Shown here piece after piece: positions 41,753 to 59,046 of a stretch of 64,000 nucleotides of DNA; position 1 is the first letter of the stretch; the number at the start of each line of letters is the position of its first letter. The notes under the pieces were generated by a model. It was given only the letters and a program-made list of their open reading frames with translations, was not told where the DNA came from and made no database searches. Both the position numbers and the translations under genes were made by a program. The stretch lies in contig WGNE01000017.1 of assembly GCA_016124645.1 (NCBI GenBank), forward strand, positions 9,431-73,430, written 5' to 3'. Origin of the DNA: Alphaproteobacteria bacterium. Lineage in GTDB: Bacteria > Pseudomonadota > Alphaproteobacteria > Micavibrionales > UBA2020.

Positions 41753-41805
41753 AAACCCGCCTTTGCGTTTCTTTAAGTAAAAGAACCGCTTTTCGTGCGG
41801 GTTTT
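41752..41805 (+). terminator. Extended imperfect hairpin after the AKR gene, possible terminator
   Basis: aaaacccgc ... gcgggtttt outer arms with an inner gcgtttcttt/aaagaaccgc stem; abuts the FNR box. Confidence 0.45.
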
Positions 41806-41818
41806 TGACCTTCATCAA
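41805..41818. promoter_or_regulatory. FNR/FixK-type box upstream of atpD
   Basis: TTGACCTTCATCAA (TTGA-N6-TCAA); TATATT about 27 bp downstream. Confidence 0.75.
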
Positions 41819-41923
41819 GGATAGAAACCCCTCACATTTGCGAGTATATTCGATATGGCAGCCCGTTTTTCAGCGGGCGCGCGGGCAGGCGCGTGGATTG
41901 AATGAACCATCGCGGGGGTTTTC

Positions 41924-43300
41924 TTGGCAAGCGAAGCCGCAAGCATTGGCAGTATCGTCGAGGTGCACGGGCCGGTCGTGGTCGTGGCCTGCGACGCCTT
42001 GCCGCCGCTGCGCCGCGCGCTGACCGCGACGGTGGAGGGGGATACCTGCGTTTTCGAGGTCCACCAGCATCTTGACGAAACCCATGTGCGCGCCATCGCG
42101 CTGCACCGCACCTCCGGCCTGCGGCGGGGCATGCCGGTCTTTGATACCGGCGCGCCGCTGCACGTGCCGGTTTCGCCCGCCTGCCTCGGCCGGCTGGTGA
42201 ATATCTTCGGCGAGCCGCTGGACGGCAAGGACGCGCTGCCCGCGGGCGAGTTCCGCAACGTCCACGGCACGCCCGTCGCGCTGTCGGACACCGTGGGGCT
42301 GACGGGGATACTGGAAACCGGCATCAAGGTCATCGACCTTCTGTGTCCCTTCGTGCGCGGCGGCAAGACCGGGCTGTTCGGCGGCGCGGGCGTGGGCAAG
42401 ACGGTGCTGGTCATGGAATTCATGCACGCCGTCGTGGCGCTGCACAAGGGCGTTTCCGTCTTCGCGGGCGTGGGCGAGAGGATTCGCGAGGGCCATGAGC
42501 TCTGGCACGATCTGCAGGCCGCGGGCGTGATGGACAAGGCGCTGCTCGTCTTCGGCGAGATGGACGAGTCGCCCGGCGTGCGTTTCCGCGTCGGCATGAC
42601 CGCGCTCAGCTACGCCGAATACCTGCGCGACACGCTGCACAGCGAGGTCCTGTTCCTCATGGACAACGTCTTCCGCTTCGTGCAGGCGGGCAGCGAAATC
42701 TCCAGCCTTCTGGGCCGGATGCCCGCCACCGTCGGCTACCAGCCCACGCTGGGCACGGAGGTGGCGGAGATGGAAGAGCGCATCACCTCCACCCGCGCGG
42801 GCGCGGTGACCTCCGTGCAGGCCGTCTATGTGCCGGCGGACGACATGACCGACCCCGCCGTCACCGCGATTTTCAGCCACCTCGACACCACCGTCACCCT
42901 TTCGCGCGGGCAGGCGGCCAAGGGGTTTTACCCGGCGGTCGATCCGTTGCGCTCGGGCAGCAAGCTGATGGACAGGCATTTTCTGGGCGACCGTCACTAC
43001 GACATCGCAGAGGGCGTGCGCGAACACCTCGCGCGCTATCACGAGCTCGAAGACATCATCACCATGCTGGGCGTCGAAGAACTTTCGCAGGCCGACCGCC
43101 GCACGGTGATGCGCGCGCGCAAGCTGCAGCGATACCTGACCCAGCCTTTCTATTCCACCGCCCAGCATACGGGCATGGAGGGCGTGACCGTGCCGCTCTC
43201 GCGCACCCTGTCCGATTGCGACGACTTCCTGACGGGCAAGCACGACGATACCGAGGAAAGCGCCTGCTACATGCGCGGTACGATGGAGGGCGCGGCATGA
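41924..43300 (+). CDS. atpD: F-type (N-ATPase-like) ATPase beta subunit
   Basis: [38 protein letters not shown] (DELSEED variant); TTG start. Confidence 0.95.
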
Positions 43301-43710
43301 GAAGCTTCACCCTCATCCTGCAGGATGCGACACGCACGGAGCGCATCGAGGACGTGACCTCCTTCGTGGGCGAGGACAAGTCCGGCGCCTTCAGCCTCTG
43401 GGCCGGGCACGAGCGCATGATGACCTCGCTGCTTTTCAGCCTCGCGCGCTACCGCGCGGCGGAGGATACGCCGTGGCAGTACCTCGCCGTGCCGGGCGCG
43501 CTGGTCTATTTCAACGACAACACGCTGACCGTCAGCACGCGCAGGTATTTGCGCGACGCGGATTACGAGCGCATCACCCGGCTTTTGAACGCCCAGCTTT
43601 TGAAGGAGGAAGACGATCTGCGCGGCATGAAGACCAGCCTGCAGCGCATGGAAGACGAAATGATGAAACGCCTATGGCAGATGGGCCGCGGCAACCGGGG
43701 GGCGCTCTGA
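43297..43710 (+). CDS. atpC: ATPase epsilon subunit
   Basis: ATGA overlap with atpD; SFVGED.SG.F..W.GH; position in the atpDCQBEFAG order. Confidence 0.85.
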
Positions 43711-43711
43711 C

Positions 43712-43993
43712 ATGTCCGAGCAGGAAGAGCTGGAAAAACAGGTCGCGCGCCAGGCCGGGCGCATGAAGCAGGCGGAAAAAGACCGCCCGACGCTGCTGGC
43801 GCAGACCTCCTATATCGGCACGCTGGGCCTCGTCTTCGTGCTGCCGGTCATCGCCGGCGCCTATTTCGGCAACTGGCTGGATGAAAAATTCTCCGGCTAT
43901 TCGGTGCGCTGGACGCTGGGGTTTTTGCTGCTGGGCGCCATCTGCGGCGGGTTCAACGTCTATTTCCTGATCGGCAAGGGGGATAAATCATGA
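43712..43993 (+). CDS. atpQ: AtpQ/AtpZ-like 2-TM protein
   Basis: GTLGL.FVLP..GAYFG.WLD, two TM helices; position after atpC. Confidence 0.8.
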   Translation: MSEQEELEKQVARQAGRMKQAEKDRPTLLAQTSYIGTLGLVFVLPVIAGAYFGNWLDEKFSGYSVRWTLGFLLLGAICGGFNVYFLIGKGDKS

Positions 43994-56964: not shown

Positions 56965-56978
56965 TTGATTAATATCAA
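56965..56978. promoter_or_regulatory. Consensus FNR box upstream of phaC
   Basis: TTGATTAATATCAA, a perfect TTGAT-N4-ATCAA. Confidence 0.85.
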
Positions 56979-57032
56979 AGGGCGGTCCGGCCCCCTGTGG
57001 TCAACTGGAACAGGATAAACAGGAGAATGACG

Positions 57033-58730
57033 ATGAAAGACGACAGTTTCGCGCCCTATTTCCGCTACATGGATACGCTGTGGCAGGCGGGTCTTTCGCA
57101 CTTTACCTTCGGCATCAGCCCCGCCGGGGCGAGCGACTCTTTCTCCGCATGGGGCCGCCACCTCGCGCAGGCGCCCGGCAAGGCGGCGGAAATCGGGCTC
57201 TACCCGCTTTTGCACGCGCAGGCCTTCGCCCAGCGCATGGCCTGCGTTCGCGACGAGGAATGCAAGAAGGACCCGCGCTTCAAGTCCGACAACTGGGATT
57301 TCTGGCCTTGGCGCTTTTACGCCGAAAGCTTCCTGTTCATGGAGGAATGGTTCAACCAGGCGACGACCGACGTGCCGGGGCTGGACGAGCAGAACGAGCG
57401 CGCCGTCTCCTTCGCCGCGCGCCAGTTCCTCGACGCCTTCTGCCCGGCCAACTTCCCCGTCACCAACCCGGACCTCGCCTATGAAACCTTCAGCACCGGC
57501 GGGCAGAACCTCGTCAACGGGGCGAAGAACGCGTGGCAGGACTTCAACGACCTGCTGACCGGCAAGGAGCCGGAGGGCAGCAAGAAATTCAAGGTCGGCG
57601 AAACCCTCGGCGTGACCGAGGGCGAGGTCGTCTTCCGCAACGACCTCATCGAGCTCATCCGCTACACGCCGAAGACGAAAAAGGTCTTCAAGGAGCCCGT
57701 GCTCATCGTGCCCGCGTGGATCATGAAGTATTACATCCTCGACCTCTCGCCCCACAACTCGCTGGTGCGCTGGATGGTGGAACAGGGGCACACGGTCTAT
57801 ATGATCTCGTGGAAAAACCCCACGGCGGAAGACCGAAACAAGGGCATGGACGATTACTACCGCCTCGGCCCTATGACCGCGCTGGACGTCATCGGCCGCG
57901 ACTTCCCGGACGCCAAGGTGCATCTCACCGGCTATTGCCTCGGCGGCACGCTGGCCCTGCTGACGGCCGCCGCCATGGCGCGCAACAAGGACGAGCGGCT
58001 GAAGAGCCTGACGCTTTTCGCCGCGCAGGGCGATTTCACGGAGGCGGGCGAGCTCTCGCTCTTCGTCACGCCCAGCGAGGTCGCCTTCCTGAAGAACCTC
58101 ATGGAGGTGCAGGGCTATCTCGACACCAAGCAGATGGCGGGCGCCTTCCAGATGCTGCGCTCCTACGACCTCATCTGGTCCAAGGTCATCCACGACTACC
58201 TCGAAGGCAAGCGGCACGACACCTTCGACCTCACCGCGTGGAACGCGGACGCGACGCGCATGCCCAGCCGCATGCACGGCGAATACCTCGAAAAGCTGTT
58301 CCTGAAGAACGATTTCGCGGAAGGCCGCTTCAGGGTCGAGGGCAAGATGGTCGCGGCGGAAAACATCCGCATTCCCGTCTTCGCCGTCGGCACCGAAAAG
58401 GACCACGTGGCGCCCTGGCGCTCGGTCTATAAGGTGCATTTGATGGCGGGGGGCGACGTGACCTTCGTGCTGACCACCGGCGGGCACAACGCCGGCATCG
58501 TCAGCGAGCCGGGGCACAAGGGCCGGTCGTACCGCATGCACGAAAAGAAACGCGCGCAAAGCTATATCGACCCCGATACGTGGCAGGACCACGCCACGCG
58601 CTTCGACGGCTCGTGGTGGGAAGCCTGGCACGGCTGGCTGCAAAAGAATTCCTCGAAGGAAAAGATCGCGCCGCCGCCGATGCGCAAGGGGCTCGCCCCC
58701 GCGCCCGGCGCCTATGTGCTCGAAAAATAG
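57033..58730 (+). CDS. phaC: Polyhydroxyalkanoate synthase
   Basis: DPRF, PANF..TNP, IMKYYILDL, GYCLGG lipase box, DHVAPW, GHNAG, GSWW, APGAYV; AGGAG RBS. Confidence 0.93.
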   Translation: MKDDSFAPYFRYMDTLWQAGLSHFTFGISPAGASDSFSAWGRHLAQAPGKAAEIGLYPLLHAQAFAQRMACVRDEECKKDPRFKSDNWDFWPWRFYAESFLFMEEWFNQATTDVPGLDEQNERAVSFAARQFLDAFCPANFPVTNPDLAYETFSTGGQNLVNGAKNAWQDFNDLLTGKEPEGSKKFKVGETLGVTEGEVVFRNDLIELIRYTPKTKKVFKEPVLIVPAWIMKYYILDLSPHNSLVRWMVEQGHTVYMISWKNPTAEDRNKGMDDYYRLGPMTALDVIGRDFPDAKVHLTGYCLGGTLALLTAAAMARNKDERLKSLTLFAAQGDFTEAGELSLFVTPSEVAFLKNLMEVQGYLDTKQMAGAFQMLRSYDLIWSKVIHDYLEGKRHDTFDLTAWNADATRMPSRMHGEYLEKLFLKNDFAEGRFRVEGKMVAAENIRIPVFAVGTEKDHVAPWRSVYKVHLMAGGDVTFVLTTGGHNAGIVSEPGHKGRSYRMHEKKRAQSYIDPDTWQDHATRFDGSWWEAWHGWLQKNSSKEKIAPPPMRKGLAPAPGAYVLEK

Positions 58731-58751
58731 ACAGCCGCCCTTATTCCTTCC

Positions 58752-58970
58752 TTATTCCTTTTCGCGGCGCAGCGCGGCCTCGATGAAGAAAATGACCGCG
58801 ACCATCAGCATGAAGGCCGGATAGGGCCACCACGCCATATGCCCGTGGTTGATCTGCGCGTGAATCAGCGTCGCGACGGCGAAGCAGCCGCCGATGACGG
58901 CGATGGCGGCCAGCCACGGGAAAAGGCGCGGCTTTTCCTTCGCCGGGCTGTTTTCGTTTGCGGTGGGCAT
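58752..58970 (-). CDS. Small 2-TM membrane protein (72 aa)
   Basis: AAGGAG RBS 9 nt before the ATG at 58970; two hydrophobic helices flanking HAQINHGH. Confidence 0.65.
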   Translation of the reverse strand: MPTANENSPAKEKPRLFPWLAAIAVIGGCFAVATLIHAQINHGHMAWWPYPAFMLMVAVIFFIEAALRREKE

Positions 58971-59032
58971 GCGTTGTTCTCCTTTTTCATGTTCCATCCC
59001 TTTATTCAATCGCGAAGGGGCGCCGCATTTCC

Positions 59033-59046
59033 TTGATAAAAATCAA
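59033..59046. promoter_or_regulatory. Consensus FNR box upstream of the small membrane protein gene
   Basis: TTGATAAAAATCAA, a perfect TTGAT-N4-ATCAA. Confidence 0.82.

Follow-up and report, generated by a model that had tools for sequence, protein, structure and literature searches.

FNR and FixK proteins bind the palindrome TTGAT-N4-ATCAA at class II promoters under low oxygen. In FNR, direct oxygen sensing is defined by an N-terminal cluster held by residues C20, C23, C29 and C122, and in Pseudomonas the pta-ackA genes are under the control of Anr. We describe here a 64-kb stretch of DNA (the window; positions 9431–73430 of contig C38, GenBank WGNE01000017.1) from a 2.85-Mb draft genome (assembly GCA_016124645.1; 62% GC, 71 contigs, 91% complete) of a Micavibrio-like alphaproteobacterium, in which six palindromes of this kind, or boxes, lie within some 17 kb (the island) around a gene for a Crp/Fnr-family regulator. 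Judging from their sequence and placement, we are fairly confident that these boxes are operator sites for activators of the FNR/FixK type (with an E..SR recognition helix), and that they occupy five promoter regions serving six units of a low-oxygen survival programme; the presence of a low-oxygen FNR/FixK-type regulon with a resident regulator appears well supported.

The closest analogue of the island seems to be the low-oxygen-activated (lxa) locus of Burkholderia cenocepacia J2315, which is described as comprising 50 genes needed for anoxic persistence, with TGA-N6-TCA boxes at 17 intergenic points and at four loci outside it (PMC3721108). Both form a cluster on the chromosome of an aerobe, contain clustered 4-bp inverted repeats with a 6-bp spacer, with some loci elsewhere, and carry genes for acetate kinase, phosphate acetyl/butyryl transferase, polyhydroxyalkanoate (PHA) synthase, ABC transport and a candidate Crp-family regulator (PMC3721108). 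This likeness is one of gene content; the two belong to different bacterial classes and the island has about 21 genes versus 50. Additionally, the USP, alpha-crystallin and class II ribonucleotide reductase genes of the lxa locus are absent from the island, whereas no alternate ATPase operon such as that of the island is noted in the lxa gene table (PMC3721108).

With respect to the regulator, the regulons of Escherichia coli FNR, Pseudomonas Anr and rhizobial FnrN share with the island their TTGAT-N4-ATCAA boxes, the E..SR helix, hemN and ompW as targets, and autoregulation, but their N-terminal Cys cluster is absent from the island regulator. The FixK and FtrB proteins of the Caulobacter FixLJ network are likewise alphaproteobacterial, with ompW as a hypoxia target (PMC3751524), but the island regulator scores below the cut-offs of these families and no other Crp-family gene was found in the genome as a candidate for FixK. 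In Bacillus Fnr, a C-terminal C-x2-C-x4-C motif and Asp141 hold an O2-labile [4Fe-4S] cluster (PMC3520743), and a 2026 review places the cluster in the N-terminal part of Gram-negative FNRs and in the C-terminal part of Gram-positive FNRs (PMC12937710). A study of alphaproteobacterial regulons filed all FNR-like proteins lacking the four N-terminal cysteines as FixK-type (PMC2908626). As for the ATPase, the N-type enzyme of Burkholderia pseudomallei has been proposed to be an ATP-driven pump, and what N-type ATPases do in the cell is said to be largely unexplored (PMC5376962). Our literature search, whose coverage was incomplete and thin for subscription journals, so that it is no proof of absence, returned nothing on Micavibrio regulators of the FNR type, on Crp/Fnr proteins of proteobacteria with a Cys cluster at the C-terminal end, or on control of an N-type ATPase by FNR or hypoxia. 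Low-oxygen regulons of the FNR type are textbook matter, and with lxa such a cluster is already known in Burkholderia; what goes beyond routine in the island is the subtype of its regulator and its ATPase-Pta-AckA operon.

Six Boxes of a Single Spacing at the Promoters of the Island

A scan of the window for TTGA-N6-TCAA, our definition of a box, returned exactly six matches, at 41805, 51437, 52883, 52928, 56965 and 59033, and none before 41805, and all six also fit the tighter FNR/FixK form TTGAY-N4-RTCAA. One hundred dinucleotide-preserving shuffles of the window contained a mean of 0.54 boxes and a maximum of three, and not one of them reached six. The spacing was likewise specific, since the same half-sites separated by 3, 4, 5, 7, 8 or 9 nt were absent from the island, as were the direct-repeat and everted arrangements. 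At the density of boxes in the intergenic DNA of the genome, the Poisson probability of finding six in the 1616 bases of the island without called genes is about 1e-9. A position weight matrix (PWM), built from 16 promoter-placed boxes, matched only two other sites in the window, an AT-rich one at 51337 (score 18.5, versus 18.7 for box 2) and a coding one at 12654; the first of these is the only, and weak, additional match in the island, and no further PWM box was found upstream of the genes for the beta-CASP protein, AAA_28, the L,D-transpeptidase (Ldt) and MaoC-Pta.

All six boxes are intergenic relative to the genes supported by Pfam, the genes of the window being assigned by their Pfam and NCBIfam profile scores relative to curated cut-offs. 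Box 1 (41805..41818, TTGACCTTCATCAA) lies between the stop codon of an aldo/keto reductase gene (41752) and the TTG start codon of atpD (41924), with its centre 112.5 nt upstream of the latter, and is directly followed by a sigma-70-like sequence, TAGAAA-17-TATATT (41822–41850). Box 2 (51437..51450, TTGATGTTGGTCAA) occupies the region between the start of an orphan open reading frame (ORF) on the minus strand (51266) and the ATG of the regulator gene (51599), from which its centre is 155.5 nt away. Boxes 3 (52883..52896, TTGACCAAAGTCAA) and 4 (52928..52941, TTGACAAAAGTCAA), 45 bp from each other, are both located between the start of a Host_attach gene on the minus strand (52819) and that of fabI (53014), and are centred 70.5 nt from the ATG of Host_attach and 79.5 nt from that of fabI, respectively. 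Box 5 (56965..56978, TTGATTAATATCAA) separates the stop codon of a LysM-YkuD gene (56942) from the ATG of phaC (57033), with its centre 61.5 nt from the latter, and box 6 (59033..59046, TTGATAAAAATCAA) lies between a small ORF on the minus strand (start at 58970), from whose ATG it is centred at 69.5 nt, and a TetR gene (start at 59189). For the four units headed by boxes 3 to 6, box-to-start-codon distances of 61–80 nt would be compatible with class II placement; if the boxes were centred at -41.5, putative leaders would span 29 nt for Host_attach, 38 nt for fabI, 20 nt for phaC and 28 nt for the small ORF. A search for sequencing runs containing this DNA returned DNA runs of a single study and no RNA run.

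These results agree with a preliminary description of the window, which had listed six boxes, all of them intergenic and none in the first 41 kb, and had noted among them a Crp/Fnr gene with an E..SR helix, which is that of the regulator at 51599 (ETFSR). Its proposal of leaders of 20–40 nt holds as a rough match, with start sites that are putative in both cases.

Enrichment of the Box in the Genome and around Homologous Regulators

The spacing-specific palindrome is enriched at promoters, both here and around homologous regulators. The genome contains a total of 40 boxes. Taking as intergenic the DNA outside crude ORF calls based on the GC content of third codon positions (GC3), which leave 14% of the genome uncalled, 24 boxes are intergenic versus 6.9 expected from a first-order Markov model, and 16 are inside called ORFs versus 20.7 expected, a number attributable to chance. 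The same intergenic DNA contains only 7–14 palindromes with each of the other spacings. The figure of 24 is an upper bound because the GC3-based caller misses low-GC genes, as with the box at C8:2772, counted as intergenic and located inside a 1041-aa ORF. The boxes so counted on contigs C8, C30, C50, C58 and C70 probably either match by chance or lie within foreign genes, and were excluded from the regulon.

We then compared 80 loci around homologous regulators (1.247 Mb), with 81 regulator homologues used for motif counts; in what follows, L-numbers designate regulator-homologue loci, whereas G000 is the source genome and G068 and G073 are other genomes of the order. These loci contain 221 boxes versus 29.4 expected, a 7.5-fold excess, and at least one box is present in 72 of the 80; palindromes with other spacings numbered 22–43, direct repeats 47 and everted repeats 21. 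Together with the intergenic excess in the source genome, this indicates that boxes are not equally frequent in unrelated intergenic DNA, a background that the preliminary description had left to be checked. In loci with full flanks, the density of boxes within 2.5 kb of the regulator was three times that found farther out. Of 75 regulator homologues, 27 have an exact box no more than 300 nt upstream, as do 8 of 19 Host_attach homologues, compared with a random background of 5%; two of three phaC orthologues also have one, although two of these loci are near-duplicates. The convergent arrangement of regulator and Host_attach genes is also recurrent, and in 15 loci a Host_attach match on the minus strand starts some 0.8 kb beyond the beginning of that for the regulator. 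Genes adjoining boxes in the islands of four relatives code for Usp, HSP20, CBS, dienelactone hydrolase, OmpW and CydA, and include hemN divergent from ccoN as well as genes for a phosphatidylethanolamine-binding protein, a 2-hydroxyacid dehydrogenase and a P-type ATPase; by predicted content, these islands appear closely similar to lxa and to other regulons of dormancy.

Some ten more boxes in promoter position are found on other contigs of the source genome. They precede hemN, followed by a phasin gene (C56), ompW (C45), a hemD/hemY-like pair (C1) and an operon for a dienelactone hydrolase and a phosphoribosyltransferase (C12), and one is at the promoter of a YgaP-like membrane gene divergent from a sulfide:quinone-oxidoreductase-like gene (C49); several genes of unknown function are also preceded by a box. 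The target genes are typical of low-oxygen regulons, comprising hemN, phasin, OmpW and HemD/HemY genes plus, in the island, pta-ackA and phaC. A second regulator is coded in the C12:362-2716 region (locus L084); it is 58% identical to the island regulator, shares its helix (RLGMKPETFSRALAQLK) and ends in a tail (FCCISCSAGLADC) with the same kind of C-terminal cysteine motif. The box on C12 is in the divergent region between this paralogue and the dienelactone hydrolase-phosphoribosyltransferase pair. In a six-frame search of the genome with PF13545, these two genes, both of the E..SR type, were the only members of the Crp/Fnr family.

The preliminary description had interpreted the island as a self-contained, co-regulated block for hypoxia or dormancy with its own regulator. 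Co-regulation in such a programme is favoured by the box statistics and by the low-oxygen and dormancy-type targets, but the boxes on other contigs are at odds with a self-contained island and, since its recognition helix is shared by the C12 paralogue, the island regulator is not identifiable as the one in charge.

At gyrA (C11:31493, at 41.5 nt, adjoining a glycosyltransferase gene) and dnaE (C37:25175), an exact box also closely precedes the start of the longest ORF; these two boxes could be due to chance or serve divergent genes of unknown function. Another box is found at lpdA (C27).

A Regulator with an FNR-Type Helix and C-Terminal Cysteines

The regulator gene (51599..52387, plus strand) codes for a protein with the domains cNMP_binding (PF00027, 77.4 bits) and HTH_Crp_2 (PF13545, 34.7 bits), both above their cut-offs, and its best matches, with 50–71% identity, are from metagenome-assembled genomes (MAGs) labelled Micavibrio or Alphaproteobacteria. 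Its recognition helix, ETFSR, contains the ExSR sequence described as the FNR-type DNA-binding motif (PMC3590769), and E-T-x-S-R is present in all 81 homologues. Conversely, the N-terminal cysteines that hold the [4Fe-4S] cluster in FNR of the E. coli type are missing: there is no Cys in the first 40 residues of the window regulator nor in those of 65 of the 81 homologues, and none of the homologues exceeds one. Among named NCBIfam families, FtrB is the nearest, an identity that we dropped on finding that 12 diverse homologues, including those from Asticcacaulis, are below both FtrB cut-offs.

In its C-terminal end, the window regulator contains the motif C227-x2-C230-x6-C237, and C-x2-C-x5-8-C occurs within the last 75 residues of 70 of the 81 homologues. 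Cys159, in the first helix of the DNA-binding domain, accompanies a C-terminal motif of the form C-x2-3-C-x3-8-C in 60 of 72 homologues, and is found in none of the eight without this motif. As predicted from sequence, the C-terminal motif plus Cys159 resembles the arrangement in Fnr from Bacillus subtilis and B. cereus, where a C-x2-C-x(n)-C motif lies behind the DNA-binding domain and there is a distant fourth ligand (PMC3520743, PMC12937710). Compared by motif description only, the x4 spacing and Asp141 of Bacillus Fnr contrast with x6 (x5–x8 in the family) and the candidate Cys159 in the island regulator; also, the host of the former is Gram-positive and that of the latter Gram-negative. 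The closest solved structures are 3fx3 and 3h3z, two unnamed structural-genomics entries, followed by DNR, ahead of FNR. Both entries have Ala at the position aligned to Cys159 and about 15 residues beyond the aligned part.

An Alternate ATPase Operon That Appears to Include MaoC-Pta and AckA

Downstream of box 1, and on the plus strand, are the genes for an alternate, N-type-like ATPase. These are atpD (beta subunit; 41924..43300; Pfam ATP-synt_ab), atpC (epsilon; 43297..43710; Pfam ATP-synt_DE_N and NCBIfam), an atpQ-like gene for a small membrane subunit (ATPase_gene1; 43712..43993; PF09527, 47.6 bits versus a cut-off of 26.6), atpB (a subunit; 43990..44682; Pfam ATP-synt_A and NCBIfam PRK13420, 355.6 bits versus 272), atpE (c subunit; 44690..44953; recognised by translating it and aligning the product with solved c subunits), atpF (b subunit, delta/OSCP-like in its C-terminal part; 44962..45726; Pfam ATP-synt_B and OSCP), atpA (alpha; 45727..47226; NCBIfam PRK13343, 689.6 bits versus 554) and atpG (gamma; 47223..48071; Pfam ATP-synt). 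Starting 20 nt after atpG there is a gene for a bifunctional MaoC dehydratase/phosphate acyltransferase (48092..49498, plus strand; PRK08190, 729.6 bits versus 282; Pfam MaoC and PTA_PTB), followed by ackA, for an acetate/propionate-family kinase (49495..50601, plus strand; TIGR00016, 321.2 bits versus 293.4). Since there are start/stop overlaps (atpD/atpC, atpQ/atpB, atpA/atpG and pta/ackA, with the ATG of atpC and that of atpG overlapping the preceding stop codons) or gaps of at most 20 nt all along from atpD to ackA, box 1 would head one apparent 11-gene operon, from atpD through maoC-pta and ackA.

The gene order D-C-Q-B-E-F-A-G, with atpD-atpC in front and no separate delta gene, corresponds to a second ATPase operon; canonical ATPase genes are elsewhere in the genome, with atpA/atpD on C16 and atpB on C51, and the canonical atpD is 51% identical to that of the island. 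As a side observation, the OSCP/delta-like region of atpF (Pfam OSCP, residues 173–241) may replace the missing delta subunit. The N-type ATPase of B. pseudomallei is alike in being coded by a second operon, besides the F-type one, with atpD-atpC in front, an AtpQ subunit and no separate delta gene (PMC5376962). The island enzyme departs from the N-type in the following. AtpR (PF12966) had no match in the ATPase operon, and its sole match in the genome, on C50, was below the cut-off (15.4 bits). All the TIGR alt_F1F0 models scored below their cut-offs, that is, alpha (553.3/750.5 bits), beta (594.6/752), gamma (67.2/282.35), a (202.4/302.1), B (119.5/224.7), c (106.5/130.85) and epsilon (45.8/100.1). 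Possibly also different is the c subunit, which shows a single carboxylate (Glu62) in alignment to solved c subunits; its sequence includes Glu62-Ser63 and Tyr67, and the helix-1 position aligned to the Gln of the Spirulina c subunit (2wie) is occupied by Met. A further predicted difference from the N-type ATPase of B. pseudomallei is the apparent operon with maoC-pta-ackA and the FNR-type box preceding it.

In a set of 201 genomes of the order, a gamma subunit of the alternate-ATPase type was found in just three, one being the source genome, which makes the alternate ATPase an accessory module. The related operon in G073 is preceded by exact boxes about 82 and about 210 nt upstream of atpD, and that in G068 by a box with one mismatch, which supports the assignment of the alternate ATPase to the box-1 unit; the preliminary description had included it in the co-regulated block. 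Neither of these two operons has pta-ackA after atpG. In turn, box-headed arrangements with these genes are found around homologous regulators, as box-phaC-maoCpta-ackA in L005 and L030 and as box-fabI-maoCpta-ackA in L036, and fabI adjoins pta and/or ackA in the Rickettsiales-labelled loci L036, L041 and L045, which hints at a conserved fabI-pta-ackA module.

Proposed Mechanism and Alternatives

According to our proposal, the island would be organised in six units, namely atpDCQBEFAG-maoC/pta-ackA; the regulator itself, which would be autoregulated; the Host_attach/baeRF12 gene; fabI with the genes for the beta-CASP RNase-like protein and AAA_28, possibly with that of the L,D-transpeptidase; phaC; and the gene for the small membrane protein. 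It would be the densest part of a genome-wide regulon also including hemN-phasin, ompW, hemD/hemY, the ygaP-like/sulfide:quinone-oxidoreductase-like pair and the dienelactone hydrolase operon, and would be served by two paralogous regulators with the same recognition helix. These regulators would sense oxygen themselves, through a cluster on Cys159 and the C-terminal C-x2-C-x6-C; under low oxygen, the dimer would bind the boxes and activate its own gene and the other five units. With falling oxygen, MaoC-Pta and AckA would convert acyl-CoA, derived from PHA stores or from the carbon of prey, to acyl-phosphate and ATP. More speculatively, the alternate ATPase from the same transcript would hydrolyse this acyl-phosphate-derived ATP, keeping an ion gradient and an energised membrane, PhaC and the extra FabI might handle reducing equivalents and stored polymer, and the beta-CASP/AAA_28 pair and the eRF1-like Host_attach protein might adjust RNA and ribosome states.

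In its most specific form, which we advance tentatively and consider rather doubtful as a whole, the proposal is that a large, unnamed alphaproteobacterial Crp/Fnr clade (with members in Micavibrio-like and Rickettsiales-labelled MAGs, Sneathiella, Asticcacaulis and others) senses O2 directly via a Bacillus-like Fe-S cluster (C-x2-C-x5-8-C, plus Cys159 in the Micavibrio/Rickettsiales branch), and that it drives here an N-type-like ATPase with MaoC-Pta and AckA for membrane energisation in a presumably aerobic predator, possibly from PHA via PhaC, MaoC and the extra FabI. Sorting by N-terminal cysteines would file this regulator as FixK-type, without direct O2 sensing (PMC2908626). If it binds a cluster, direct oxygen sensing has been under-counted in alphaproteobacteria, and the textbook split between N-terminal clusters in Gram-negative and C-terminal clusters in Gram-positive bacteria would be broken. 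Likewise, the joining of an ATPase operon to the ATP-yielding Pta-AckA behind a low-oxygen operator leads to the testable hypothesis of an ATP-driven pump for anoxic maintenance, which, if true, would give alternate ATPases a defined physiological role, and hints at how Micavibrio-like bacteria may survive anoxic periods.

Several observations weigh against a low-oxygen regulon organised in this way. Concerning the regulator, it scores below the cut-offs for Fnr (70.1 versus 228), FixK (51.6 versus 300) and FtrB (106.7 versus 211, and 64.3 versus 300); zinc binding or a thiol switch are other possible functions of its Cys motif; and Fisher's P for the link between Cys159 and the C-terminal motif is overstated, because the sequences are related, and the count is suggestive only. 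At the promoters, box 2 is 155 nt away from the regulator and separated from it by a sigma-70-like sequence, TTGTCT-16-TAGAAT (51546–51573), boxes 4 and 5 have weak -10 elements at the distance typical of class II, and the best -10 near box 1 would place this box at about -45. In the rest of the genome, the cydA-like gene has no box, and ccoN, Usp, HSP20, CBS and PBP were not found in the 91%-complete assembly using proteins of relatives as queries. Among relatives, the box of the G068 ATPase operon is just the one-mismatch sequence cTGAC-N4-GTCAA, 75 nt upstream of atpD; boxes before single orthologues are patchy (fabI, 1/5; beta-CASP, 1/6; AAA_28, 0/3; Ldt, 0/2); and maoC-pta has a direct box in none of three cases, being there an internal operon gene behind a box-headed phaC or fabI.

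That the boxes could have arisen by chance or be ordinary TTGACA elements of the -35 kind, lacking a dedicated regulator, is suggested by the presence of TTGAC in the sigma-70 -35 consensus and by the location of some genomic boxes in foreign DNA, whose higher AT content makes chance matches likelier. This is nevertheless refuted as far as statistics can go, and is extremely improbable in our opinion, given that none of 100 shuffles reached six boxes, that only the N6 palindrome and not its direct-repeat or everted controls was enriched, and that a 7.5-fold excess is seen around homologous regulators in other genomes. A more serious contender, although still an unlikely one, is a real regulon that responds not to oxygen but to NO, to stress of the redox or thiol kind, to a metal or to a small ligand bound in the cNMP-like pocket, with the C-terminal cysteines forming a zinc site or a disulfide switch. 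It would fit a regulator that lacks all the N-terminal cysteines of FNR, fails every curated family cut-off and has DNR, ahead of FNR, as its nearest solved relative after 3fx3 and 3h3z, and has a precedent in FixK2, whose control is reported to depend on the oxidation of one cysteine (PMC2908626, PMC12937710). Oxygen is favoured instead by the classic oxygen-regulon targets, hemN and ompW here and cydA, ccoN and Usp in relatives, and by three to four co-occurring conserved cysteines, which fit a cluster site as in Bacillus Fnr (PMC3520743); also, the annotated neighbours of the boxes include no denitrification or NO-detoxification gene, although no search was aimed at them.

The island boxes might also be served mainly by the C12 paralogue, the island regulator being then a repressor, an inactive copy or a protein with another role. 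To this we assign a low probability, lower than that of a different signal: the two proteins share their helix and are 58% identical, and there is a box in the divergent promoter region of the paralogue, but regulators are central in the box clusters of most related loci, with the threefold density within 2.5 kb, and the island copy retains all the conserved cysteines. Both this and the activation of the island by its resident, oxygen-responsive regulator can hold together.

Other Genes of the Island and Its Edges

Between ackA and the regulator, an orphan ORF of 220 aa (50604..51266, minus strand), low in GC and without a Pfam or NCBIfam match, and an AT-rich spacer span positions 50604–51590, and the GC content drops to about 0.53 over 50–52 kb. 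This stretch is probably a foreign insertion outside the programme, with box 2 at its edge. The Host_attach/baeRF_family12 gene (52388..52819, minus strand; Pfam) is convergent with that of the regulator. In loci L013, L010 and L011, its counterparts are regularly paired with HSP20 behind a box, and in L013 a dienelactone hydrolase gene adjoins a Usp gene and a box.

The product of fabI (53014..53772, plus strand) is an extra FabI-type enoyl reductase (NCBIfam PRK07533, 421.2 bits versus a cut-off of 337), the genome having three FabI paralogues: the box-preceded copy of the island and those on C30 and C11. It is followed on the same strand by genes for a beta-CASP metallo-beta-lactamase-fold RNase-like protein (53864..55228; Pfam Beta-Casp, RMMBL and Lactamase_B) and an AAA_28 P-loop protein (55266..55925; Pfam), which are also adjacent in L002 and L007. 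The gene for a LysM-YkuD L,D-transpeptidase (55998..56942, plus strand; Pfam) is possibly the last of the fabI unit, and the PWM and terminator scans gave neither a box nor a strong terminator upstream of it; the terminator scan, with 26 sites versus 22.8 expected, is uninformative for operon ends. PhaC (57033..58730, plus strand; Pfam PhaC_N) is a class I-like PHA synthase scoring below the cut-off of TIGR01838 (492.5 versus 622.65 bits). The small ORF (58752..58970, minus strand) codes, from its translation, for a membrane protein of 72 aa that belongs to no known family and has a weak Pfam match; a homologue adjoins Host_attach in L012.

The TetR gene beside box 6 has its own near-consensus sigma-70 promoter, TTGAAA-17-TATAAT (59130–59158). 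It is the first of a TetR(CecR-type)-HlyD-ABC ATPase-ABC-2 permease operon (59130–62958) that borders the island and appears to be under its own control. Beyond it, on the minus strand (62966–64000) and running past the window, is the gene for a long Ala/Glu/Lys-rich protein with repeated low-complexity stretches; several box-associated proteins on C13 and C26, whose function is unknown, have similar Ala/Lys/Glu-rich tails.

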